A stretch of DNA of 63,798 nt, filler included, from Folioceros fuciformis (taxonomy: Eukaryota): assembly GCA_049999805.1 (NCBI GenBank). It is 4 parts of 4 records of this genome, joined end to end, with 100 filler letters (N's around TTAATTAATTAA, not from the genome) between each part and the next. Parts side by side here need not be neighbours in the genome. Positions count along the whole stretch, not along the records: positions 1 to 9,762 come from JBNGIO010003074.1; 3 more parts are not named here. One strand, given 5' to 3'. This document shows, in pieces, positions 1 through 59,892 of this stretch (the first letter of the stretch is position 1; each line of letters starts with the position of its first letter). The notes under the pieces are model-generated. The model worked only from the letters and a program-made list of their open reading frames with translations, did no database searches and had not been told where the DNA came from. The position numbers and the translations under genes were made by a program.

Positions 1-3000
1 GCTTGGGCAAAGCAGGACAAGAGAGCACGCTGCCTCATCATGTCTGCCCTGGACAGAAACATGATTCAACACACTCAAGGGCAGACAACCTCTGCTGCAG
101 TCTGGACGATGTTTAAGGACATGTTTGCAGCTAAGGATGGAATGTCACTTATAAATGCAACCAGACTACTCTATGGTCTTTGTATGAAAGACACTGACAG
201 CGTTGAGCATCATTTGCACAGGTTCCATACCTTTCATGCCAAGCTTTCCTCCTGTGGTGAGGATTTGACAGAGAAGCAAGCAGTGGTTATGCTCCTTACT
301 TCACTGCCCCAAAGCTACAGAGCTTTTGTTACTACCCAGACTTCCTTCACCAAGCAAGCCGGAGCAAATGTGACATTATCACAAGTGGTGAGTGCACTTC
401 TCGAAGAAGAATCCAGTAGAATTGCAACTGGACGGGGTCAACAACATACCTCACAAGTCCTCTATACTTAGCTTGGACGAGGTAGAGGGCATGGCCGTGG
501 ATGGGGGAGACCCTATATAGTCCCATCATCTTTTTACACTGGTCTACAGAAGAAGGGTACGTGTCACTGGTGCCGTATTCCTGGACATTTCGAAAATGAA
601 TGTCGTAAGAAGCGGGCTGGTGAGCCCCAACGTGAAGCACCACCTGGTGCTGAGACACATATAGTGACTCGAGGACAGACCAACGCAACACAAACTGCCA
701 ACTAGCCACCCACCATCCTTGCAGTATGCTTATCTCTCACACGAGCTGACCCTAATATGTGGTTCCTGGATTCAGGAGCCACACATCACATCTTTCAATC
801 AAAGGACAAATTCGTCACTTACAAGCAAGCACCCACCAGTCAATTTGTCTTGCTTGGCGATGATAGTGGTCTGGCTATTGCTGGCTATGGGGATGTGTCT
901 TTCCAACTCAATGGCAGAGCAAAGATTCGACTGTCGGGAGTTCTCCATGTACCTAGCATGACGAAGAACCTATTATCAGTGAGGAAGCTTGTAACAGACC
1001 ACGATCTACATGTTTTTTTTTCACCAACTGGCTGCCTGGTAACATCAGCAAAGGATCATTCTGTTATCTTAGGAGAGGGAATCATTTACAATGATTTGTA
1101 CCAATTTGATACAATAGCGGCACATCCTCGTGGACTAGTGATTGATGGAAAACCAGATGTCAATGCCAGAACTATATAAAGACCCACTTGCCTTTAAAGT
1201 TCAGGATCACTTGTTTTGTGAAGACTGCCAAGTGGGTAAAATGGCACAGAAGCCATACAATGATCCAGAGCCCACAAAAGCTATTGGGTTGTTAGATGTT
1301 GTGCTATCTGACATCAGTGGCCCGATGTCGACAGCTTCCTTTTGTGGTGCCACATATTTCTTATTGTTCCTCAATGAATGGAGTCATTATTGTTGTTTGT
1401 ATTTCCTGCATCATCGCCATCAAACTTATAAGAAATTCCTGGAGTACGTGCAAATGGCAAAAAACAGAAGGGTATACTCCACCAGCTGACTGTTCCCTAT
1501 CATCCTGTGCAGAACTCATATGCAGAAAGATACAATCGAACATTGCAAGAACGTTGTCGAGCTACTCTCTCGTCAGCTGGGCTTACTCGAGGGTATTGGG
1601 CTAAGGTTGTAGCAGTTGTCAATTATGTACAGAATAGACTTCCTGTCAAGCCATTTTTCAGTTATACACCATTTGAGCGTTGGTGTGGCCATAAACCCAG
1701 AATAGGGCATCTTCGAATTTTTGGTGCAGCTGCATACGCATACATTCCTGCGGACAAGCGTGGTAAGATGGACAGTAGGGCTACTAAGCATGTATTTGTT
1801 GGTTATTCTGAGCAATTGAAAGGCTATAAGTTATATAATCCACACACAAGACAACTGACCTTGGCTCGAAGTGTTAGTTTCAACGAAAACTTTATCATCT
1901 CCTCTCATCTACATAATGTCACAAGCCACACGCCTTTATCAGAACCCTCTATATATGGGCATACACCACAGCTACCATTTACAGATGATGAGATTGACAC
2001 TGACATTTCTGATTTTCCTTCTGATTTCTTTGGTTCGCCACCACAACTTCAAGTACCTGTCCAGCAAGCTTCAATGAATGCACCAATTGTACTTGACCCT
2101 GTACAGTTAGATGATGCTCCTCCAATTGCAGAGTTAGATCTTCCTGTTCCAGATCCAACTGAATTCGATGTGGATCGAGACCCTCCAGCTGTACAACAGA
2201 ACCTTATTTTGCCACGTAGATCAGCACGCATTCACCATCCTAGATCTGAATGGTTAGAAAAACCCTATGGACCTGGTGACACCTTAGTTTAACACCAATC
2301 TTACCAGCTGACCCATTACCTCGATCCGCTCTAGCAGCTCTTGCCCATACATCAGCCTCCACCATTCTTGATCCACCTGATACACCACTTACATATAAGG
2401 AAGCTTTCTCTGGTCCCTATAAAGCAGAATGGCATAAGGCCATTGATTCTGAGTATAACAGCCTCATTGAAAACAAAACATGGGAGCTAGTAACTTTACC
2501 TCCAGACAAATGAGCTATTACATCCAAATGGGTATTTAAATTAAAGTTGCATCCAGATGGTTTTGTTGCCCGATTCAAAGCCCGCATGGTTGCAAGGGGT
2601 TATACTCAAGTGCATGGTTTGGATTACAACAAGACATTTAGTCCCGATGTGAAGCCAACTTCCATGAGAATTTTGCTGTGTTATGCTGTGAAGCATCAAC
2701 TCCTTGTCCATCAAATGGACATCAAGACCGCTTTCTTGAACGGTCCTCTCGATAAGGTTATCTTTATGCATCAGCCCGAGGGCTATGTCCGTGACCTTTC
2801 AAAGGTATGCAAGATGTTAAAATCTATTTATGGACTAAAACAATCTGCTAGAATCTGGAATACTAGGGCTACAACCAAATTGCGGAAGCTGGGATTCACA
2901 TCGTTTACAGCAAATTGCAGTGTTTGTCAAAATTTAACCTCACCGACTTGCATCCTCTCACAACTCCCATAGCCTCTGCTGACAAGTTGTCAATAGAAGA

Positions 3001-3760
3001 CTGTCCTACAACACCAACAGAGACGACAGAAATGGCACAAGTTCCTTATCGAGAAGCTGTCGGGAGGTTGTTGTACCTTGCTAGCTGGACACGTCCTGAC
3101 ATTTCTTAGGCTGTAGTGGTTGTATCACGTTTCCTTGCAAATCCTGGTAAGAAGCATTGGACGGCAGTCAAACGAATTCTATGATACTTGAAGGGAACCC
3201 AAGATTATTTCATACAGTACACAGCAGCAGGCACTGCTACCCTTACCTCTTATTCAGATGGTGATTGGGCAGGCGACATTGACTCCCGTAAATCCATTGC
3301 TGCATATTGTTTGCTACTGTGTGGCTCTGCTATCAGCTGGCAGTCGAAGAAACTGACCACATTGAGTCTCTCGTCTACCGAGGCCGAGTATGGTGCATTA
3401 TCCCTAGCTGCATGCAAGATTATCTGGGTTAGACAATTCCTTGAGGGCATACACTGGCAGCAACCCTCAGCAACATTTCTGAGATGTGACAACCAGTCTG
3501 CGATTGCCTTAATAGCGAATCCTATCCTGCATGCTCGATCTAAACATATCAAGATATAGTTTCATTTTATTTGTCAAGCAGTGGAGACAGGGGTTATACA
3601 GCTGCAATATGTGCATACATCAGATAACGTGGCCGACATGCTTACCAAAGGTCTCCCTAAGACAACACACGAGCAACACAGATTTTCCTTAGGACTAACA
3701 GGTTCAGCTACTTATCTCAAACAACAACCACACACATGCCCAGCTGAGAAGGAGTGTGGG
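1..3760 (+). mobile_element. Decayed Ty1/copia LTR retrotransposon internal region (gag-PR-INT-RT-RNase H), 5' end outside window
   Basis: Domains occur in copia order: gag-like ORF 40-471, CHWCRIPGHFENEC zinc knuckle (~562-603), protease WFLDSGATHH (757-), integrase GLLDVVLSDISGPM/AERYNRTL (1142-2292), RT ARFKARMVARG/HQMDIKTAFLNG/KSIYGLKQSAR (2547-), RNase H YSDGDWAGD/SSTEAEY/CDNQSAI/NVADMLTK (3188-3763). Many in-frame stops and frameshifts. Confidence 0.97.
3746..3760 (+). other. Polypurine tract and start of the copia 3' LTR
   Basis: GAGAAGGAG immediately followed by TGTGGG at 3755, just after RNase H. The matching LTR end was not found. Confidence 0.65.
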
Positions 3761-3931
3761 TGAGCTGCAACTGTAGCTATGTATTCGCAGTTGCGTTAAG
3801 AGTGTCTCAAAGCTCAATTCCTGCGTGTCATGCACAAGGCGATATCTTAAGCCTGACCAGCACCCTATACAAGCTGTTAGTCCTGGATAAAGCATCAAGG
3901 TAACCTAAATAGGACCAATAGACTTCATGCA

Positions 3932-4062
3932 TCAGATAACCAATATCAACCATAGATACCAACCGGATAAGGTTGCGATTGGTTATCCGATAACCAACCG
4001 AGATAACCAACCGAGATAACCAACCATTGCGCCTCAGGCTGATTCTAACCGGATAAGGTTCC
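3932..4062. repeat. Cluster of GATAACCAACC(GA) short repeats with an internal palindrome
   Basis: GATAACCAACCGA repeated with 13-bp period around 3989-4025. Perfect inverted repeat TTGGTTATC-C-GATAACCAA at 3979-3997. AACCGGATAAGGTT occurs at ~3961 and ~4047. Confidence 0.8.
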
Positions 4063-4955
4063 GAGTTAGGTCTGAGGGGGCGTATTGGAATAGTATTTAA
4101 ATGGCAGACACTAACTCGTTATTACCAAACGGTAAAAAGGGTTAGAATAACCATTCGTTAGTATAATTATATACGTTAGGTTAAAACGGTTACAAAATAC
4201 ACTTTTAATGTTTTTTGTTTCTTTTTGATACACTCTTTAAGTCGTTACCCTCTTGGCGAGTCTCTCCGGTGCTCGTGCGCTCATGGTGCTTGCTACAATC
4301 TAATCTACATGATGCAGTAGATCACTCCAATACATTAATGGGCTTGACCTGCACTAGAACATTATACACTTGTTCCTTCCAGAACGGGAAGTTAGTACCA
4401 TCTAACTTCTCAATATTGAACATGACGTTTTCTGAGGACATCATGATTCAGATTCGATGCAAATCAAACTAAAGGCCAGTTAGAAACGGTCGGAATGTAA
4501 TGTAGATTTTGATAGTTACCCTCTCACCTCGTTCCAAATCGGTCTCTTCGTTCTTCATCACTAGGTAGCCAGACCGTTCGCTCCTCCACGCATGTATGTC
4601 CTAATCTCTTCCTCAATCATTTCCTTCAGCTCCACCTATAAATGATATGCCCTAGGTCTCATTCGAAGAAACCATTGATAACAACCAGTGGCTGTTAGGA
4701 TGTGCAGCCAATAATTCCTGCCCCTTCCTGTCCCAACCACCATATACATATTTAAAGTGAGCACCCGCTCACCATGCAAGTAGAAGCCAGGGACATGAGC
4801 ATCTTCATCTCTATGCCACAGCACAATATGCCCTTCTGCTAAAGAGGTCCTTACCCTCTCCCCCCGTTGATAGTCCTGGGCTAACTGCCTCTTGAATTCC
4901 AAGGGGGTTGCACCTCCCTTTGCTGCACTTCTGCTAGTGGCTGGCTCCACCACTT

Positions 4956-5239
4956 TGTAGGGTTATTAAAGCCTAATGTGCTTAGACTATTGTGTTTAGT
5001 CTAATATTAGTGTCTAATTAAGTATAATTTGTTTATATTAGCTTAAGCTAATATGTAGGAAGCTTCTTGCATAGCTTCCTATGCGCTTCTTGTGAAGCTT
5101 CCTTGGGAGCTCTTCTAGAGCGTATAAATACCCCTTTGAGCTCCCTTGCAATTGAGACATTGAGAGTGTGAGACCTCTCTTTCTCCTCTCCTCTTCCACC
5201 ATGTGGCTCCTCTAGCGATCCTTCAACTAGTATTAGAGC
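4956..5239 (+). mobile_element. 5' LTR (~270 bp) plus degenerate tRNA-iMet primer-binding site of a second LTR element
   Basis: TGTAGG...CCTTCA termini (4956-5225), internal TATAAATA at ~5123, then AC-TAGTATTAGAGC (5228-5239), which is TGGTATCAGAGC with two transitions. No intact gag follows. Confidence 0.65.
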
Positions 5240-5749
5240 GTGGATTGGAAGTAAGATGGTGATGTCCATGGGTGCTGCGGACAAGGTGCGCAAGGCCATG
5301 AGGAGGGCACAGGAGTGAGTGAAGGCAGCATCTCGGGGGCCGTCTAACACCACTCTGCTGCCCGGGGTGGAGGAGGCTCCAACCCCGCTGTGCCGCGGCA
5401 GCACGGAGTGGGTGCCGGAGTGGGAGCCAGGCATCGGGAGATGCCGCCACGCCACCCCACAGCGCAAGGTGCTACCCCAGCCGAGAGCGCCAGGCCCTGC
5501 CCCTAATTGGGGTGCAGGGGGCGCCAGGAAGTGGGCGCCGGGCTGCGGGCGCCAATCACTGAGGTCTGGCACCGCCAAGCCGACGAGCGCCAAGGTGGCT
5601 AGGCCGTCGAGCCACGGGGCGCCTGACTCCGGGCGCTAGGGTGCGGCGAGGCCGCAGGGTGCCACTGGACGCGGACGCCGCGAGCGCCTAAGCGTTAATC
5701 TAACCCGCAACAGTCCCTCTTAACCTACCTAAGGTCTTAACGAATCGCA

Positions 5750-8150
5750 CGTACCACACATGCTACTATAATTTCGGAAACACCTAATAAGCTTCATGCC
5801 TTTAGCTCAAAGACCATAAGGACATCTTAGCACATGCCTCATCAATGCCAAAAGCGCCCAACACAACTCGTTCCATCAATTTAGAAACAAAAGCTCATGC
5901 TAGAGCATGCCAACATAACGTCTAAGGAGCACCACGAACCTCGTGCTGACGATCTACGTTCTACAACGCAGATGGAGACAGTCGTCCTCAAGCTCTTAAA
6001 CCTGCTTATCACCGGCCTCGCTGCAACAATGCTTTTGATCTCAATCGCTTTCGAGGAGAGAATGAAACACACACAACCAACCCTCAGACTCTCCAGTGTC
6101 ATGACTTTGAAAGTCTACTGGAATGCTATGTCTGTGTGAACTTTCTGTGCAAATCGATATCGTGCAAGCTATTAAGTTAAGAAGAGCATGCGAGCAGTAA
6201 AGAAGAGGTCGATGCGTTTTGACTACAGAATTAGCTAGTAAATGAAAAGTTATTGCAAGAGAACAGTTGACGACCTCAAGTTATTTTGGTGGTTAACTTT
6301 GTGGGCAATTTGTGTCATTTCAAGGGACTTATTCAAGCAGTTAGTGACCAAATTTTGATAGTATATAGGTGCTGGGGAAGAATGAGTGAGCATTCTTTTG
6401 ATAGTTTTCTTAAAAAGCTTAGAGTGTAAGCAATGAACGATGTGCTCGTTACGATGTGGCTTGTAGCGAACTGAACAATTGAATCAAAGCTTTTGTGTTG
6501 CGAATTCACGTTTACATGTTTTATTACACAAGAACGTTGTAATGGCCTAACTTAGAGCATGGTCGGATTGACATCTTAAAACTTGTCACTATCAAAAGAA
6601 TCACTGGAATTTCACACTTAGCTAGCATTCACAAGGGGAAGATAGTGTCAAGTTCGTGGGCCATAAGTGTTAAGCTGGGAGATGGCGTTCGGTTTTAGGA
6701 GTTAAGGAGGTGCCATGAGAATAGTGCAGAGTGTTTGGGTGACAATTTTGGAGTGTTACTAAAGACATCTTTTTCAAAGCTCAAGGCAAATGGGTGGTGA
6801 TTTCTTGTGAATAACTTGTGGGTAGACTTTAGTAGCCTTGTTATTTTTCCTTCAATGTGTGGGTTGGGAGATGCAAGAGCTTGGGAAAGAGTTTGTTGAT
6901 GTTTTGTTGTTTGTTTTAAAAGTTTCCGTACAATGGAACAATGGTGGGCACGCTTAGGATGAGAAGTTGTCAAGTACTACATAGAGTGTCAAAATAAGGT
7001 GAGCATAGAGAGAGTAGGACCTAGGGGTTTGAGTACTGTAGTGGCTTGAAGTTTTGGTGAAAGTTGTAAGAGTCATGAGTGGGACAATAGTGGAATTTTA
7101 AGTTGAGAGAAGAGTGTGAATTAAGAGGAGAGAGATGGGAAGGATATGTGTATCAAAGAGGGAATTTAAGGCAGCGGGTTAGGAGAAGGCATGGATAGAA
7201 TTGAAGAGAAGTTTGAGGGGCGAGCGTTGTGGGAGCAAGAACAGTCATGGCGGGCAAGTAGAAGGAGCATGCAAGCAGGTCTGGGGCTGCTAGGGCGCAC
7301 ACAAAGAAGATTGCCAAAGATGGCTTTAAGAACTCGTCGGCGCGCAAGATTACGAAAGGGCAACTTCTGCTGCAGCTTCAAGAGCAAGCGGCTGAGTTGG
7401 AGAGATTGCGGGGAGGAGGATTGAGCCTTGGTTTGGAAAGGCTGAAGAAGGCGATCGTCAGTGTCTGCAGGCCTCCCGTGTTGCCTCCTCCTCTAGGTCT
7501 TCCACTTGTGCGCGATGGAGGAGTGGAGGAAAGGTCGGACCAAGAAAGGGTGGGAGGTAAGGACTTGACAGAAGATGACGAAGGGAGATGAGGCAAAGTG
7601 GTACAAGGGTTGTCTATAGGGAGCACTCCAGCAGCGTCTGACACGAGCGGGAAGAAGGACATAATTGAGGAAGTGGTAGGTGGAGCCGCATCGAGCTCGA
7701 CTAGTGCTGGAGAACAGCTGGGTTTGCCGCTCGTGTGTCAGCAGCATGCAGGGCAGGGATTCAGGCTACATGTTCGCCAGCAAAGAATGGTGCACAAGGA
7801 GATAGTGCTAGAGTGCTCTCGGCCCAGGTGGAAGAGCCAAAAGCGGTGATATGTGAAACAAAGAATCAGCAAATAGCGGAGGCGGCCGGTGTTGCAAGAG
7901 GAAGTGTGCCTGCAGAATTGGTGGCGATAGAGGGAGAGTGTGAATGTTGGGCTTGTGGGAGAAAAGAAGGATGGGCCCAACGAGCCTGTGGAGGAGAGAG
8001 AGGCAGTGGTGAGCGTCGATGCCGGAGCAAAAACGGGAGTTGAGTCGCGCACGGGGAAGGGTGAAGGAGGATGTGGAGTAAAATGTTGTGTCCGAGGACA
8101 CCGCGAGGCACACACAAACCCTCTATGTCGTTGTAGCCATGGGATTCGAT
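5750..8150 (-). mobile_element. Heavily decayed transposon-like coding remnant, possibly a Penelope-like retroelement
   Basis: Strong strand asymmetry (minus strand C-rich) and broken overlapping minus-strand ORFs. Hand translation gives weak ordered fragments YSHG(H)LL, ISQLNTYGPRT (~6650-6685) and FPSTYILSKF (~6350-6380), reminiscent of the N-terminal part of PLE RTs. No YxDD seen. Confidence 0.3.
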
Positions 8151-8866
8151 CCCAAGGGAATGATTTGTGCCAAGTAACACAAGTTTCTTCTAATACTGAC
8201 TCTTGCCTAGGCCAGGCCTTATCTACGACCAGTTCTACTATCGACTACGCCAACCACTACCCCTCAATTAGCCTAACTACCATGTGTCCTACTTTACGAC
8301 ACAGGTCTCTACACAATGCCAGTGATCGTGGTCTCCACGACCACTATTAGCTTCCATGACCGTGGTGGGTCCCACCCCAAAAACTTTAACTTCCCGGCGC
8401 ATGCGCCGCCGCGGGTTCCCACTGCAGGTTTCTGCTCCGGGCTTCCAGACTCACAAGGTTGGTTTTGTTGGGTGTTTCGCACACCTATGGGCACCACTCC
8501 CTAGGGAAGCAGGGCACCGTGGTCGGCTCTCTTCCCCATGCGCCTGGGCACCCCCACTCACACGCACTCACACGCACTCACACGCACACACCTTCTAGTG
8601 GCGCTGCAGATCTTCCGCGAACCTTACCCCAATCCTTTACAATCCTTTACCAGCTTCAGTCAGGCTCAACCATCGTTCACATACACACTTCAGGATTTCT
8701 CAGAAATCCTCTAGGAATCTCATCCAGGCTCCCACACACTTTCTCAAGCACCTCACCGTTACTCAGCGATTTTGTTCCTCCCATGCCCAGCAACCCGTGC
8801 CACAACCCCAGCAGTCACCCAGGACCCCGCGCCCTCTCAACTCACTCCCCCGCAATTAGTGGTTCA

Positions 8867-9323
8867 GGGAATAAGGGAGGAAGAGTTTCTCCCTCCACTC
8901 CGCGCATCGGGCGGATTCGTCCCCCTCTCCTCAGCTTGTGGCCAGCCAACCTCCCTCGTACGCATTCACTCCTTTTCTTCTTACCCACTCACTCACTCAA
9001 TCTCCGTCCCCACACTCTCGTCACTCCGTCACTTCACACAAGCTTCTCACCAGCAGATTTGAAACGCAGCCAAAAGAACAGGGTATAAGGGAAGGGGGTG
9101 ATCCTCTTCCACTCCGCACACTGGCAGATTTGTCCCCCTCACCTTAGCTACAATCCACAAACAGTCGTTTAAGGAATAAGGGAAGGAGAGTCCCTCCTTC
9201 CACTCCTCGCGACTGGGTGATTCGTCCCCCTCACTTCCCACTCTGGAGCACAATGAACGGTTCGGGGAATGAGGGAAGGTGACCTTCCACTCAGCAGAGG
9301 ATCTGCTGATTCGTCCCCCTCAC
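8867..9323. repeat. Four dispersed copies of a ~60-nt structured (three-way junction) motif
   Basis: Copies at ~8867-8928, 9081-9141, 9172-9234 and 9264-9323. Consensus GGGA-ATAAG-[GGARG..hairpin..CYTCC]-AC-[TC..hairpin..GA]-TTCG-TCCCCCTCAC. Confidence 0.85.
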
Positions 9324-9762
9324 CACCCGTTGCAAAGCAAAGAACTCTCGACTTCTCCTTAGGAGCGTCGCGCATACACTGCCACCCAGACCTCTTCTAT
9401 CCATTCGTGGACAATGCGGGGACCTTGCCTGGAACGAGTCACAGATTTTTTGCTGCTTAGTGAGGCGCCAACAAGCCTCTTTGTACACATGATGGGCGGG
9501 ATCGCAGCCGCCATTAAGTTCAGTCTTTAGGCAGTGAGGCGCTCTTAATTATGAGCAGCATTAGGTCCAAGAAAGCATCTTCACCAGATCTTACTAAATG
9601 TTATTCTAAGATGCAATGAATTCTAGCCTATCCTATTGCCGTGCTCGCCTCCTATCCGGCCTAATGGGTGAATGGGTGTTTTATCATTACTTAAGTTCTA
9701 GTTATTATCAAGCAGCATATATAGTATGAAGTGGGTTGTAGGTTATAAACATTCACTTACCT

Positions 9763-9862
9763 NNNNNNNNNNNNNNNNNNNNNNNNNNNNNNNNNNNNNN
9801 NNNNNNTTAATTAATTAANNNNNNNNNNNNNNNNNNNNNNNNNNNNNNNNNNNNNNNNNNNN
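9763..9862. other. Artificial contig-joining linker
   Basis: 44 N + TTAATTAATTAA (stops in all six frames) + 44 N; identical to the other two gaps. Confidence 0.98.
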
Positions 9863-10128: not shown

Positions 10129-10294
10129 CAAACCAAAAGATATGCTTGTAAACTCATAATCTAGAAAAAACAACCTTTTAAGTTAATATAACAGACTAAA
10201 CTTCCTAAGTCAAACTAAAAGATATGCTTGTAAACCCATAATCTAGAAAAAACAACCTTTTAAGTTAATATAACAGACTAAACTTCCTAAGTCA
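10129..10294. repeat. 82-bp tandem duplication in AT-rich DNA
   Basis: AAAAGATATGCTTGTAAAC...AAACTTCCTAAGTCA occurs twice, nearly identical, with period 82. Confidence 0.9.
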
Positions 10295-11594
10295 GACCAA
10301 CTATTCTGCTTCATAATCCTTTTGGGTTAGCTATATCAAGCAGAGTAGACAATATTCATAAATCGGTTAATAGCCCTCATAGATCTTTAGAACATAAAAA
10401 CATTAGTTCAACAACTTCATACCTAATCAACCAATTTTAGCACAAAAATTCACTTCCATAAGGTATCCATTGACTAATTTGGCTCATATATCAGATCTTC
10501 AATGTGCTGCTCTTCATTCAAAATACTTGCAACACATAGTTTGCTTATAGATCTACTACCAAGTGCACATTGTCATACTGTAGATATACTATAGTAGACT
10601 GCACTATGTTCAGGGCTGTTATTAGAGTTAGGGTTGGTGCCAAAGATTTGGTTTTCCAATTACAAGGAGCATGGGGCTTGAACTAGTCTTGTTTAATTAT
10701 ATATTCTTTTTTTTTTAAAATCTAGTTTTAAGGAATAGTTGTCTTTAGGTTAGCATGCTAGGAGCAAGCAAGTTTTTGGAGCTAGTAGGTTTCAAAGCGA
10801 GCCATGGGATCTTATGTCTTACAACTTTTTGGTACTCTTTGCTTTAGGCATGGGTCTCATTTCTTCAGCTTCCAACAAGGACACCTTTTGTTTTGTGTGT
10901 GGAAAATAGTTCATATCTTGAGGTGTCATAAATCATATGTGTTTAACGTATAAGGACTTAAACTAAACTACACAGGAGGCCCAACTTCAACAAGCTTTTC
11001 TTTTTGGGTGGCCCCCATGATCGTAGGAACCAATGACCTGCATTCCCCTTCTTTGGAGTCCTAGCAATGGTTAACAACTCCATTTTGGTCATCTCCTAAC
11101 ATTTATTGGAGGTGTGTTTCCCAAAATTATACTTATTCTAACACCTCCCACAACGCCTTCACGACAACATTCACCTAGCTTATTGGCTTCCATAAGAGCA
11201 TCTAGTGCTTGATCCCCAAGATGAGGCTATTTGGACATCGTTCCTTTATCTTCTGACTGGGAAGGAAAAAAAAAACAATGCCTAACAAGGTCCACTTCTT
11301 AGGTTTCTTCCCACTGGGAAGAAAAAGGTTCTAATGAATCCATGAAGCAGCATGTTGTCCTTAACTCCTTGGGTTGGACAGTAGAGGGGAGTGCATTGGC
11401 CAAGATTCATAAGAACTCCCTTCTACAACCCTACACACACCCATAAGAACTCCCTTCTACAAGCTACACACACGTTTATCCCCCTTGCCATTATGATACA
11501 TGAGGCAATTAGTAAGGCGATTTCTCAGTTTTTGAAACCTTCGCAAAGATAGTTCACAACAAGAAAAATGAGCTTGGTCTTCCTCTTTCGTGCA

Positions 11595-11698
11595 TTGTAG
11601 TGTTCTTTTAGCCGAGGGTTTTGTAGTGTTCTTTTAGCCAAGGGTTTTGTAGTGTTCCTCTAGCCGAGGGTTTTGTAGTGTTCCTCTAGTCGAGGGTT
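11595..11698. repeat. 26-bp minisatellite, 4 copies
   Basis: TTGTAGTGTTCYTYTAGYCRAGGGTT x4 head-to-tail with no spacers. A separate ~34-bp duplication lies at ~11408-11473. Confidence 0.9.
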
Positions 11699-16443: not shown

Positions 16444-19400
16444 ATGATTCGCGGGGGCGGTAGTCTCGTTGATTATCGTCCCGTCTTCTCGGTGGATGGC
16501 AAGCTCGTGCTTGTCTGCACGGGCTGCACCGTGTCCGTCTTCAGTGTTGCCACAGGGCTGCTGGTGCGTGTTTCGTAAGGGCATTGTGCCTCATTTTCGA
16601 TTCGTTCAGCCGCCAAGGAAAATACTGCTTAGCTTCGTCCGTCTGACGCTCCGATCGCTCGCAGGCGACGCAGGTGTGCGGCCACGAAGACCGGGTCACC
16701 AGCGTTGTTGTTGTCCAGGATTTGGGCCCGACCAAATCAGTGGTGCATCATGCCTGGACGTCGTCCCTGGATGGGAAATTGCGGCTTTGGGATTTTGGCG
16801 TTGGTGTCCTCATCAAGACCGTGGACATCGGACAACCGGTTTGGTCCCTGGTATGTGTTGTCTTGTGGTTTTTTTTTTTTTTTGGTGGCTGCTGATGCGC
16901 GGTAGCGGGGGTGCTCACAGGGTGTTGGAATTAGGGTCGGCAAATGCTGATTTCTGGGAGTGCCTTGCGCCGTAGGTCATACCGATGTGGTTTTATCCAG
17001 CTGAGAAGGCGAAGCCATTGACAGCATTTCTGTCCGTCGGTTACAAAAAGGGCGGAGCGAAGCCTGAGGATGGGAAAGTGCAGGGCCGAGTTCTTGTGTA
17101 CAATTTGACCAGTTCGAGTCCCTTTCCAGGCTACTTGGCAAAGGTATGCAGGGAAGAAGCTTCTTCTTTTTGGACCACCGATATGTGTATAGTTGTGTGG
17201 ATGCTGTAGCTCACTTAGATTCTTGGGCTTTGCAGACCGAGTCTCCCAGGCTGTTGGAAGCAAGTCAGTCTGGCGGCCTGGTTGGAATGATTGACAAGAA
17301 CAAGGTTTGGGTGTGGCGAGTACCAAGCGTTAAATTTAAATTGAAGGACGTGGATGTCCTTTTGTTGCACCATGTAAGGGAACTTCGGGTTCTTGCATTT
17401 GATCCAACAGACACTGTACTGGCTGCTGGCGATAAGACTGGCAGAATTCTGCTATGGCAAAACATAGGGGAAGTCAAGTTTGGTGGAGTTTCCGATTCTG
17501 GGGACACGAAAAGGGGTTTGAAACGAAAACTCGAAAATGGTATTGCTGGACACCAGGAGGAGTCCCGGCAGAATGATGATGCGCAAGCTGTGTCTACTTA
17601 TCACTGGCATTCCCATGAAGTCAAGCTTCTCACATTTTCTGCGGATGGAGTCTATTTGCTGTCCGGTAACACTGAAGCTATTTATTCAGTACTGCAGTAC
17701 GGCGTCTTTGGCTGTTTCATGGATTTGACACGTCTCCCTTGTGCTTGCTCAGGTGGATTGGAAGCTGTCCTAGTAATCTGGCATGTGGAGACAGGGAACA
17801 AGGATTTTGTTCCTCGATTAGGAGGGCCTCTTCTGTTTATTTCGAAGTCTCCTGATCCTGTTATCTTTTCGGTGAGTGGCATTGGCTTGCTGTCGTCAAC
17901 CCTTGCTATGTCTTAAAATCCATCAGATGAATGCTGGAAGCTGAGATCGTAGAGTGTGTCCTGAAACTATGTCTAGCTGTTTCACGCCTTTCACCAGAAA
18001 ATTGCAGTTTTTGGGAGAGTAAAAAGCTTTACAAGTGATGTCAACTTGTAGGTATCATGTGCAGACAACTCAATTGTGTTTTTCAACTTTGGTACCAGAA
18101 GTGTGCAGAGAGGCATTCATGGGATCAAGGTACATATTTCTCTAGCCAGCCGTGGCCATTGGTATGTACGAGAGGGTCAGGATGCAGGGTTTGTCAAGAA
18201 ATCTTGTAATTTGCTCTGCTGCTGTTTTACCAGCCACTAGCCATCCTGCCAAACAACGATGGACTTGTGAAGAACTCAGGAGTTGTCCTAGAGCCTGTGG
18301 AAGGAATCATGGCGCTCACAACGGAAAACGTTTCAGTTCAATTTTATGACATCTTCCAGGACCGGCATGTGGCCGAGGTAGTTCTCGACTTACATGGGCT
18401 GATTTCTTTCACTTTCCATAAGTTTGCTTTCTAGATGGGGCCAAAAAGCAACAATTCTTGTAGTGTGACATGCCTTACTAGAGTTTTCTTGCAGATTCAA
18501 GTGTATCCCAGAAACTACCTTCCAACTCCTGACAAGGCAGGAGGGCCCTCACCGCCCTCGGTAATGTTTAGTGTGCAATTAGGAAGGACTTTCTCGAGTT
18601 TTCTAGTGATTGGATCTATGTGATACAAGTGAGAAGAAACCTGTGCATGATGACTGAACTATTGTGCTGAAACAGAGCTTGGTGACCCATGTTGCGTTCT
18701 CAGCGGATGGCATGGTGATGGTCACGGTGCATTCAAGGCTGTCTGAAAAAGAATTAGGAGGCTCGTCACACCTTAAGTTTTGGGACCGGGAAGTGGGTGT
18801 CTTGCGGTTTACGGAGAACACAGTAGCCCAGGAGAGCAGGTGCGCTCCTGTTTTTCTGTTTGTGTTTCTGGGATGGTTGCAACTGTTGCTGGCTGTAAGT
18901 TGTGTATTCTCATTGTGAAAAATTTGTGTCTGAACAGTGCTGAGATTTCAGCGCTTGCTTGCCATCCAAGCAAGCACATGGTTGTCAGCTGCATTCCATT
19001 GGCTGCTGAATTCAAGGTGAGACCACATGGCCTCAGATTTGGAGGTGGTTTACACATCTTACCTCCATACCCGAGTTCCTGACTGCATGAATATTTCGCT
19101 TACCAGGTGTGGGTTCAAGATAAAAGAGCAGGGCTCGAAGACGAAGACAAGTTTTTTCGATGGTCCTGCCGATCTGTCGGGTCCTACAGGTGACGTGTTC
19201 AATGGTGGCTTAGTTTATTCCTGGTCCTGTGCGTTGCTGCTGTGAAGGCGAATGCCAAGCTGAACCGTCAAATTGCAGGCGGAAGCGCATTTTAAGTGCA
19301 TCCTTTTCTACGGATGGTTCTCTGCTGGCAGTCGCTGCTGAGGAGGTTGTTACCTTGTGGAATCCTGTTACCAATGGGATAGTTACTGTACTCTCGTCTG

Positions 19401-25312: not shown

Positions 25313-27288
25313 TCAGAAGTGCACGTGTTTCCACAAGCTGGAGTACCAGTGGTGCTTGTGTCGCGGGTGATGTAGGGCGTTCGCATGTGCATGTCCATGC
25401 CCGTGACCGTGGTGTCCATGGTGAGCTTTGTGGGCGTGGTGCTGGGAGTGATTACCATGCACAGCCGAGCTCGGAAGCATGTGGGCGTTGTGCGCGAGCT
25501 GGTTCTCTGTGCTGGGATCCGTCACCCTGCCCATGAAGAGGATAGCGTCTGTGGTGTCATCTTTGATGACGAAAAGGAAGGGATGATCCGCCACGAAGTC
25601 CACCTGCGGCTGGTGATGGCGATGGTGGTGATGCGGGTGGATGTGCATGAGGCCCAAGAGAGTGTGCGCCGCTGCCGACGTCCTCGTCTCCCCCTCGTAC
25701 ACCTCGATGAAGGCCTGGTGCAACACAGTGGAGATATGGAGCTTGAGGTCCGATCCATCTACCACGTCCGAGAAATCTGCCGCCCCCGGTAAGAAGGGCA
25801 GCACCAGACCCATGCTCTGCAGCACCTCCCGCACGTCCAGAGCCGGCAGGGAGATCTTGAAGCGCGGAAGCTTGAATTGGCCCACCTCAGTCTGGTTCAC
25901 GCACTTCATCATCTGCTGCAGCATCGTGCCGTTCAGCTTGCTCTCCAGCTTGAGCAGCCCGTACCGGGCCTCCGGCAGGATGATGTACATGGCCAGATGG
26001 CGGTCGTCCGCGTCGTCGTGGTACGGCAGCTTCAGCACCTTGCACTGGTCGAACGTCCCGATGAGCCGCTTCTTCTCGCTGGTCATCATGGGAACCTTGA
26101 CGGTGTGGCCGTTGAGCAGGTGGAAGCCATCGGGCTTGGTGTTCCACTCGTGGAACGGCTCCTTCCACCGCCCCCTGAAGTAGAGCGCGTTGGTGAGGAT
26201 GATCCCCTGGCTCTTGCTGCTGGACGGGGACCCGATACCGTGCAGCCGACTGCCTGGATGCCAGCTCGTATCCTCCCCCTGTCGATCGAGATCCACCGCA
26301 GTTCAGTCCAAAAACAACACCACCAACACTTCCAAGCTCAGTGCAGCAAGAAAGGAAAGAACACAAATCATCTCTAGGTCGTCCAATCTGCGTGCGTGCA
26401 TGATCCAGGAAAGTCCAGAGCATTAAGAAATCGCGCATCTACCTTGTCCCGGAAGTCCATGACGTGCACTTCCGTGAGGTACTTGTCCTTGAGAAGCCTG
26501 GCGAACGAGGGCTTGACAGGCACGTCTCTGTCCAGCCATAGCCCGTTGGAGAAGGCCTGGAGGGGGCCGTGAGGATGATTGTTGTGCAGGTGGTGGCCGT
26601 TATGATTGTCGTGGCCGTGATGTCCATGTCCGCTGTGGTGCGATGAGTGACGACGTTGCCCGGAGTGGCTATGGCTGTTGCTGCTCAGATGACCCGAGCT
26701 GTGGTTGCTGTAATACCCGTCCGGGTTCAGCGTAAGCTTCACCGGGCCCGGGCTGTGATGTGGCTGTACCTGTAACTGCTGATCACCGTGGCCAGGGCTC
26801 TGATCCGGCAGACCGCGTATATGCCCGGAGCTGTGGTTGCTGTGGTACACGTCCTTGCCATCCCTCTCAGGAAGGCCTTGCAGGTGCCCCGAGCTGTGGT
26901 TGCTGCTGCTGTTGCTGCGGGGCTGGTGATGATGATGATGGTGGTGGTGGTGGTGATTGTCGTGGGAAGTATCGTGGTGGAAGAATCCGTGCTGGTTTCC
27001 ATGCCAGTGCTCCACAAACACCGCGGCCAGCATCTCCTCCGCGAATTCATGCATGTAATCACTCGGCGGCAGGCCCAAGCTCTTTGAAAACTGCTCCCTG
27101 GTCTCTCCTCTTGCCCCGGCTGCCACCATGGCCAGCATCAGCGCAATGCTGAGCGGAGACGCGCACACGTTCTCCTCGAAGGTGTCATCGAACAGCCGCC
27201 TGTAGCAGGTTACGGTGAAGTCCGCCTGCTTGTCCACCTCCTCCCAGAACTCCGAGTCGGTATCCGATTCCGACCCAGCAGAGGACAT
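25313..27288 (-). CDS. Serpin with large histidine-rich insertions, 2 exons (intron ~26280-26442)
   Basis: ENVCASPLSIALMLAMVAAGARGET, FSNGLWLD, VMDFRDK|gt, IILTNALYFRGRWKEPF, FHLLNGHTVKVPMM, KVLKLPY, FKLPRFKIS, VLHQAFIEV and DFVADHPFLFVIK...ILFMGRVTDP (serpin signature). Confidence 0.93.
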
Positions 27289-27846
27289 GGCTTCCAGCAG
27301 AAGCAAAGGAAGCAGCAACGTTGCTGCTTAATGCTCTCTGAACCAAACCTGGAATTGCACACAGTCGGAGAAGCCTGCAGCCGTCCGCGCTCAGTCTCGG
27401 TGAAAAAGGTTGAATCCACTTGCCACCGTTCGTGCGCAAGGCTCGCTGGCAGAAAGGCTGCGGCCTCGCTTTAGCTTGCCGACATGTGCAAGCCTTCAGC
27501 GTTCGTCGGGTCCCTCGTGACTCGTCTCCACCCGCTTGCTTTATTAAGCATCGTTAACCTCCCCGCAGCCTCCCTGCACATTGTTCGTGTCCTGTTGTTG
27601 CCGTGGAAGTTGGTTTGGTGTCAAATCACCGAAACCCAGGGCGTGGATTGGAGCAAGCGGGTCCCTAAATTTGTCTCTGAGGCGTCTACTTCAGATAAGA
27701 TGGAGGCAATTTGAGGAGGCTTGCGGCGACAGTCGAAGATCGCGAATCCTCTCCACTTGTCAGGTGACAGAGGGATTGACGACTGGCATTGATGCATTGC
27801 TGAAAATAATGGTGTCACAGACCAACTGATGACCTGACACCTAATC

Positions 27847-37520: not shown

Positions 37521-37620
37521 NNNNNNNNNNNNNNNNNNNNNNNNNNNNNNNNNNNNNNNNNNNNTTAATTAATTAANNNNNNNNNNNNNNNNNNNNNNNN
37601 NNNNNNNNNNNNNNNNNNNN
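37521..37620. other. Artificial contig-joining linker
   Basis: N-run with central TTAATTAATTAA; the genes on both sides are truncated. Confidence 0.98.
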
Positions 37621-59792: not shown

Positions 59793-59892
59793 NNNNNNNN
59801 NNNNNNNNNNNNNNNNNNNNNNNNNNNNNNNNNNNNTTAATTAATTAANNNNNNNNNNNNNNNNNNNNNNNNNNNNNNNNNNNNNNNNNNNN
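59793..59892. other. Artificial contig-joining linker
   Basis: N-run with central TTAATTAATTAA; DRP3 is cut mid-exon. Confidence 0.98.

Follow-up and report, generated by a model that had tools for sequence, protein, structure and literature searches.

A tandemly repeated candidate three-way-junction unit in a dispersed, probably mobile, repeat family of Folioceros fuciformis

Toward the end of one contig of Folioceros fuciformis, a core of about 60 nt, composed of two short inverted repeats within a GGGA/TCCC frame, recurs four times. The locus raises the question of what this unit is and in what form it might act: as a folded single strand, as a motif read on DNA, as a ribozyme, as a signal of the degenerate retroelement upstream, or not at all. 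We addressed it over the whole stretch of DNA analyzed, 63,798 bases long and called the window here, and in contigs of public sequencing runs. The window consists of four contigs joined by N44-TTAATTAATTAA-N44 linkers at 9763-9862, 37521-37620, and 59793-59892; because these linkers are artificial, neighborhood across them is meaningless. The first contig (1-9762) contains the array, which stands 440 nt before the contig end.

Four copies of a tandem unit

A sequence-only reading had described four copies of an element with conserved junction letters, a GGGA/TCCC frame, two hairpins, and a CCTCAC tail. This observation is right and goes beyond chance: both the sequence and alignments place the four copies where they had been reported, with the features listed below, and the tail is present in all of them, reading CCTCTC in copy 1.

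8867-8932, copy 1, core and tail: hairpin A of 9 pairs including one A.C; hairpin B of 5 pairs; R1 score 87.2 bits
9081-9145, copy 2: frame eroded to GGGT; hairpin A with two G.U; hairpin B with one C.A; R1 score 81.0 bits
9172-9238, copy 3: frame eroded to AGGA; hairpin A of 8 pairs plus one A.C; hairpin B with one C.U and one U.G; R1 score 83.6 bits
9264-9327, copy 4: hairpin A of only 6 pairs with a 3-nt loop; hairpin B of 8 perfect pairs; R1 score 70.2 bits (9265-9326)

R1 is a covariance model built from the four copies themselves and run with filters off over all 63,798 bases, so that their high scores (70.2-87.2 bits) arise by construction. A fifth copy was sought in the window with the same model and none was found, the next scores being 13.6-17.4 bits and belonging to the palindromic hairpin A on the opposite strand. 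Similarly, self-BLAST of 5600-9762 against the window returned copy-to-copy matches only. The 12-letter end motif TTYGTCCCCCTC, with at most one mismatch allowed, occurs four times in the window, each time inside a copy, where 0.61 occurrences are expected; 1 of 100 shuffles reaches four.

The spacers between the cores had been called unrelated, which proved incorrect. The 30 nt ahead of each core share a pairwise identity of 0.411 (74/180) against 0.277 ± 0.052 in shuffles, a value that exceeds the maximum of 200 shuffles (0.38), and one pair of units aligns across 83 nt at 77%. The start-to-start distances of the copies are 214, 91, and 93 nt, copy 1 standing isolated from the others, 214 nt ahead of copy 2. 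Based on the likeness of the spacers and on these distances, the whole unit of about 91-93 nt is an old, decayed tandem repeat with a well-kept core. The core alignment of the four copies has 70 columns, of which 35 are invariant, and its mean column identity of 81% is far above the identity of the same units' spacers (0.41) and hairpin tips (0.27).

Other identities were sought for the unit. The repeat period is not divisible by three, no Pfam match was obtained for ORFs in the array region, and the 90-aa minus-strand frame of the array yielded a single word-sharing candidate in a protein collection and none at E ≤ 0.01. A tRNA-like reading was rejected: the minus-strand stretches CGAATCC and GGAGTGG, which we take to resemble a B box and an A box by their consensuses, stand in the wrong order within the unit, and ARAGORN, searched for a tRNA or a tRNA-derived SINE, finds 0 genes in the window. 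A pattern scan of metagenomes gave one locus, which is bacterial-looking, lacks the hairpins, and scores 14.2 bits with R1, and is hence attributed to chance; 13 loci from a scan of prokaryote genomes are likewise at chance level, given a best R1 score of 13.7 bits against 70-87 for the copies. A scan of viral contigs for the unit returned 0 loci. Our literature search found no printed description of such an element; the motif may already sit in a catalogued repeat consensus (Repbase, Dfam).

A dispersed family in contigs of sequencing runs

We compared contigs of four public runs (X1 to X4) with positions 8300-9762 at 80% likeness. X1 and X2 derive from one sample, possibly the window's own source, and their matches number 297 and 334 contigs, of which 233 and 263, respectively, are less than 95% alike. 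Summed contig depth, which is no measure of copy number, peaks at copy 1 (8888-8936) at 794.5 and 1020.6 and amounts to 192-738 across bins 9133-9328, compared with 12.7-29.1 in the flank 8447-8838. In the source sample, other contigs that have the core number in the hundreds. Furthermore, some joints in these contigs omit and others duplicate stretches of 78-91 nt and about 227-238 nt, from which it follows that arrays elsewhere have other numbers of units.

Three further segments around the array are found with the family elsewhere.

9035-9080, leader ahead of copy 2: a similar stretch stands before the first unit on other family contigs; depth 58-103
9324-9426, trailer behind the last unit: common to some other family members; depth 40-94
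9427-9662, second repeat segment of high depth: other contigs show it joined to the array; depth 166-965

The leader is seen as a loose-end consensus before 8860 in X1, X2, and X4, with an agreement of 0.64-0.70 over 6-7 contigs, and the trailer in a similar X4 loose end behind 9250 and in joints that include 9324->9416. The array is joined to the 9427-9662 segment at 8926->9538, 9144->9450, 9297->9457, 9340->9565, and 9341->9527. Behind 9662, other copies continue with a common sequence that is absent at this locus, their loose ends agreeing at 0.86-0.87. Taken together, the joints, the common leader and trailer, and the second segment show that the array belongs to a larger element, dispersed and probably mobile, of which this locus has a truncated or interrupted copy.

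At several positions the majority letter of the contigs repairs what is defective in the window. At 9084 it is A (T>A; 63.1 of 68.5 depth), which restores the frame of copy 2, and at 9193 it is T (C>T; 610 of 694.2 depth), which restores the ninth hairpin A pair of copy 3; the changes 9207 T>G and 9217 G>C likewise mend private defects. X4 stems from another study with the same species label and holds a 1054-nt contig of uncertain kind with several units about 87 nt apart. One of these units is identical to 9173-9254. In another, hairpin B reads U-A, U.G, U-A, G-C, U.G, which adds a third Watson-Crick type, U-A, at a hairpin B position where copy 1 has C-G and copy 4 has A-U. That X4 is RNA is only a guess, and the blanks in its cover (8300-8838, 8937-9132, and 9280-9762) support no inference. 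Each of the divergent units is found again elsewhere alongside its own spacer; divergence of the units must therefore predate the spread of the family, with their cores held alike throughout.

Two observations concern the comparison itself. Paired 1-nt gaps at 8902/8903 and 8909/8912 fall within a GCGC run, where gap placement is arbitrary, and carry no weight. Run X3, from the same sample, shows hardly any difference to the window other than G>A (95 places) and C>T (34); it looks like bisulfite-treated DNA, from which the methylation of the array might be read.

Pairing of the core and what it may reflect

It had been proposed that the two hairpins are kept by selection on structure. The four copies do share a common Y-shaped pairing scheme with conserved letters at the junction and varying tips; the covariation is thin. 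Pairwise identity is 0.87 (60/69) at the junction, 0.755 (163/216) in the stems, 0.73 in the tail, and 0.27 (18/66) in the hairpin tips, which vary in both sequence and length and are alike only at the random level. Of 69 cells, 63 (91.3%) are paired, as opposed to 46.5-67.6% when the partners are slid by 1-3 columns, and RNAalifold predicts the identical Y on both strands. Pairing is kept although hairpin A shrinks from 9 pairs in copies 1-3 to 6 in copy 4 and hairpin B grows from 5 pairs to 8 between the same copies. Such changes in hairpin length leave a folded junction intact, but on duplex DNA they alter the distances among the conserved blocks, by as much as 6 bp.

Covariation, with four sequences only, is not significant by shuffle controls or by RNAalifold. 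Four of 18 pairs have changed on both sides (14-28, 17-25, 36-50, and 37-49) against 1.9 ± 1.1 in shuffles; of 500 shuffles, 39 reach four double-changed pairs, 25 the covariation score, and 28 the percentage paired. The covariation term of RNAalifold is about zero (+0.12 kcal/mol on the plus strand and -0.12 on the minus strand). The closing stem is without any covarying pair, and its register is ambiguous because of a run of five Cs. When the stem changes of each copy were randomly re-placed, in a test that assumes a star tree and a consensus drawn from the four sequences, at least three double changes were kept in 49 of 20,000 runs (P about 0.002), and at least 63 cells stayed paired in about 1 of 10,000 (P about 1e-4). 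Folding energies of single copies on the plus strand (z = -0.23, -0.02, -0.20, and -2.67 for copies 1-4) are clear for copy 4 only, and those on the minus strand (z = -1.25 to -1.61) are mildly better than shuffles. In folding energy, an array of three units does better than its shuffles on the plus and the minus strand alike (z = -2.50 and -2.81), and the Y is then the minimum-energy form for one unit only (copy 4, minus strand). Four sequences are insufficient to settle the fold. Pseudoknots between the loop of hairpin B and the spacer were also considered and dropped, a single 6-nt match having been noted by eye in copy 3 and not in common with the other copies.

Tentatively, and with somewhat less than even confidence, we favor the hypothesis that the unit is a folded, single-stranded, cis-acting module and most likely a repeated protein docking site in RNA. 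The four monomers, with a period of about 91-93 nt, form a short old tandem array in a dispersed, probably mobile, plant repeat family. Under this hypothesis, folding of the single-stranded core would bring the conserved letters to one three-way junction and leave the tips free to change, and the unit would serve a mobile element in this form, most likely within the element's RNA transcript, as a putative docking site for packaging, export, or stability and not as a self-cleaving RNA. It is the pattern of conservation, together with hairpins that tolerate changes in length, that favors a module acting folded and single-stranded. The copies, their tandem unit, the family with its variable arrays, the retained pairing, and the lack of a match to known RNA families are established; we infer the formation of the fold, its occurrence in RNA, the strand concerned, and the binding of a protein. 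Provided that the fold exists and works at the RNA level, the unit would represent an uncatalogued structured RNA family with about 100 or more genomic copies, linked to a mobile element of plants. Such elements have very few defined cis-acting RNA structures, and this one would offer a handle on the packaging, export, or protection of its element. As it stands, the unit is a well-delimited candidate.

Rather doubtful in our view is the alternative that the unit is a cis element at the level of DNA. Its dyad-symmetric boxes with a purine/pyrimidine tract would then be read on duplex or cruciform DNA by a putative transcription factor, transposase, or integrase, and its pairing would be renewed by template switching instead of arising from selection on RNA. 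Replication template switching can, according to the available part of PMC8794818, create perfect stems and multi-base "compensatory" changes without RNA selection, and hairpin B of copy 4, a perfect 8-bp inverted repeat with clustered changes, looks like a footprint of the kind described there. RNA read from one strand should show a bias of wobble over mismatch, and the non-Watson-Crick cells on the plus strand, 3 G.U versus 4 A.C, favor neither strand, which counts against RNA. In addition, the stems are conserved in sequence (0.755) and not merely in pairing, and the tips (0.27) are less alike than the spacers (0.41), which would fit tips that are hot spots of mutation. Plant mobile elements are known to carry motifs of this general type: Sireviruses, as described in the available text of PMC2829016, have palindromic boxes peculiar to the element, in 8-32 copies distributed over LTR and linker, along with about four copies of the polypurine tract in the 0.5 kb nearest the 3' LTR. 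The units contain on the minus strand the octamer AGGGGGAC, one letter from the Sirevirus octamer AGGGGGAG given in that text; it is present in all four copies and nowhere else in the window (4 versus 1.66 expected, with 9 of 100 shuffles reaching 4). However, the exact Sirevirus octamer occurs 0 times in 1-9762, all six of its matches in the window lying in other contigs, and a CGG-CCG core in the form printed in PMC2829016 was not recognized in the four units. Moreover, a distance between conserved blocks that varies by up to 6 bp is a poor fit to a rigid dimer bound to duplex DNA, and template switching would explain the stems but not the conserved, unpaired junction letters (0.87). Should the unit nevertheless act on DNA, it would add a composite two-palindrome unit to the known repeated dyad motifs of plant retroelements and provide a clean case for separating the upkeep of hairpins by template switching from selection on RNA.

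We consider it improbable that the unit is a functionless, neutrally decaying tandem repeat whose ancestral monomer had two palindromes by chance, so that the pairing is simply inherited. Most stem cells are indeed unchanged from the consensus, and the shuffle counts for percentage paired (28/500) and for double changes (39/500) mean that shuffles are not clearly exceeded. Hairpin A has eight changes, every one of them a transition, which is the pattern of methylated repeat DNA. Tat/Ogre LTR retrotransposons of plants also commonly have, in their 3' untranslated regions, short tandem arrays with variable monomers and numbers of units (PMC7004042, in its available part, citing Macas 2009). Neutral decay nevertheless leaves several features unaccounted for: the contrast between cores at 81% mean column identity and spacers or tips at 0.41 and 0.27, the rarity with which randomly placed changes keep 63 of 69 cells paired, and the retention of pairing by two hairpins that both change in length.

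The upstream copia, ribozymes, and known plant repeats

The elements upstream of the array in the first contig are as follows.

1 to about 4470, plus strand: degenerate copia with gag 1-471, Pol_BBD 706-1179, integrase/SH3 1432-2292, and RVT_2 2514-2972, frame-shifted over several frames
About 4950-5239, plus strand: stretch resembling an LTR, which has a TATA box near 5121 and a terminal CA at 5223-5224

Behind the LTR-like end come ACTAG and TATTAGAGC; a PBS-like site spans 5222-5239, in likeness to the Sirevirus junction, and no gag lies beyond it. TATTAGAGC is one transition from the Sirevirus tRNA-Met primer site, which has an unusual 5-nt gap (PMC2829016, available text). The array had been suggested to carry a signal of the adjacent element, and a packaging or reverse-transcriptase recognition signal of this same-strand copia is a very improbable reading. 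It draws on the degenerate copia on the plus strand upstream, on purine-rich tracts in the units that resemble polypurine tracts, and on the long linkers with repeated motifs of Sirevirus-type copia (PMC2829016, available text). Against it, gag-pol ends about 4.4 kb upstream, and in the non-coding stretch between, 0 of 10 ORFs have a Pfam match better than E 0.05. The intervening LTR end with its PBS-like site starts another unit, no LTR-like repeat links both sides, and the 400-nt flank ahead of the array (8447-8838) has the low summed depth of 12.7-29.1 already mentioned against 200-1000 in the cores. We also rejected the array as the linker of an element whose 5' LTR ends at 5224, because 9427-9662 matches nothing at 4500-5224. 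Neither an LTR pair nor a coding domain was found flanking the array within this contig, which ends at 9762. A packaging or protein-recognition role in some other mobile element is possible and lies close to the docking-site reading that we prefer.

Several other features of the window were recorded. A purine-rich block at 6001-8000 (GC skew +0.346) precedes a pyrimidine-rich block at 8400-9350 that contains the array, and the two have no mutual similarity on either strand. Other tandem repeats are CACTCACACG repeated 3.7 times at 8555-8591, an 82-nt unit repeated 2.1 times (95%) at 10129-10300, and a 26-nt unit repeated 4-5 times at 11569-11698. Another contig has two ordinary host genes: a serpin gene in two ORF pieces at 25313-27318 on the minus strand, whose best solved relative is Arabidopsis Serpin-ZX (3le2; E 3.9e-42), and a WD40/WDR75-like piece at 17146-17916 on the plus strand.

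The hammerhead-like connectivity that had been noted is present, the minus-strand order of helices being that of a hammerhead, and the likeness extends to helix order only. In the hammerhead consensus, CUGANGA lies between helices I and II, a GAAA linker is followed by an A-U pair, and the cleavage-site letter is not G. The minus-strand linkers around the junction of the unit are CGAA, GU, and CUUAU, with CAAA in copy 2 and CUUAU or CUCAU where CUGANGA would be expected; as had been remarked, CUGANGA is in none of the four copies. A search for hammerhead boxes by regular expression over 8800-9400 gave 0 matches on the plus strand and one on the minus strand, at 8934, which lies in none of the cores. 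Twister, twister-sister, pistol, hatchet, HDV-like, and hairpin ribozymes are families in Rfam. No match in the whole window reaches the gathering score of Rfam 15, and the unit thus belongs to no known family; at E ≤ 10, Rfam 15 gives eight weak, unrelated matches over 8300-9500, none of them to any of these or to another ribozyme.

The proposal of a new or variant ribozyme accordingly finds neither a hammerhead core in any copy nor a ribozyme model at this threshold, and a self-cleaving three-way-junction ribozyme with a hammerhead-like helix order and a different core, encoded on the minus strand in tandem in a plant mobile element, is highly unlikely. Three helices are predicted to meet at one junction with conserved letters, the long, middle, and short linkers follow the cyclic order of the hammerhead on the minus strand, one of them being CGAA, and the units are tandem and have many genomic copies. 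Compared with the consensus, however, the A-U pair beside GAA is reversed and reads U-A, a G occupies the would-be cleavage site, and the catalytic Gs are missing; moreover, the 1054-nt X4 contig, though of uncertain kind, spans several units uncut. Retrozymes and Penelope-like elements carry true tandem hammerheads that are detected by Rfam models. The unit resembles these in being a small three-way-junction module in repeated copies and differs from them in matching no Rfam model.

Among plant retroelement repeats, two systems come closest. The arrays are like the sub-repeats of Tat/Ogre elements in that short, element-specific monomers vary in number between copies and are dispersed with the element. 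The Tat/Ogre arrays belong to a known element, in which their place is downstream of gag-pol, and are not described as folded in the available text of PMC7004042, where "hairpin" and "palindrom" occur 0 times. Unlike them, the present unit has a monomer core that is much better kept than its spacer.

The second system is that of the Sireviruses. The array as the multiple-polypurine-tract linker of a minus-strand Sirevirus, with a 3' LTR at or before 8842, is unsupported, since the octamer is inexact, the flank is of low depth, and neither a Sirevirus AT/TG junction nor an LTR was found next to the array. Sirevirus RM boxes, as given in the main text of PMC2829016, are single palindromes of 10-20 bp with a CGG-CCG core, whereas the units consist of two palindromes and a frame in 60 nt. 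Hairpin B of copy 1 is a CCGC...GCGG palindrome, from which copies 3 and 4 differ, and four units are in view compared with at least eight Sirevirus boxes. The units and the Sirevirus motifs nonetheless have in common, as far as the available text of PMC2829016 describes the latter, that repeated dyad motifs and G-rich octamers occur about four times within 0.5 kb of non-coding sequence.
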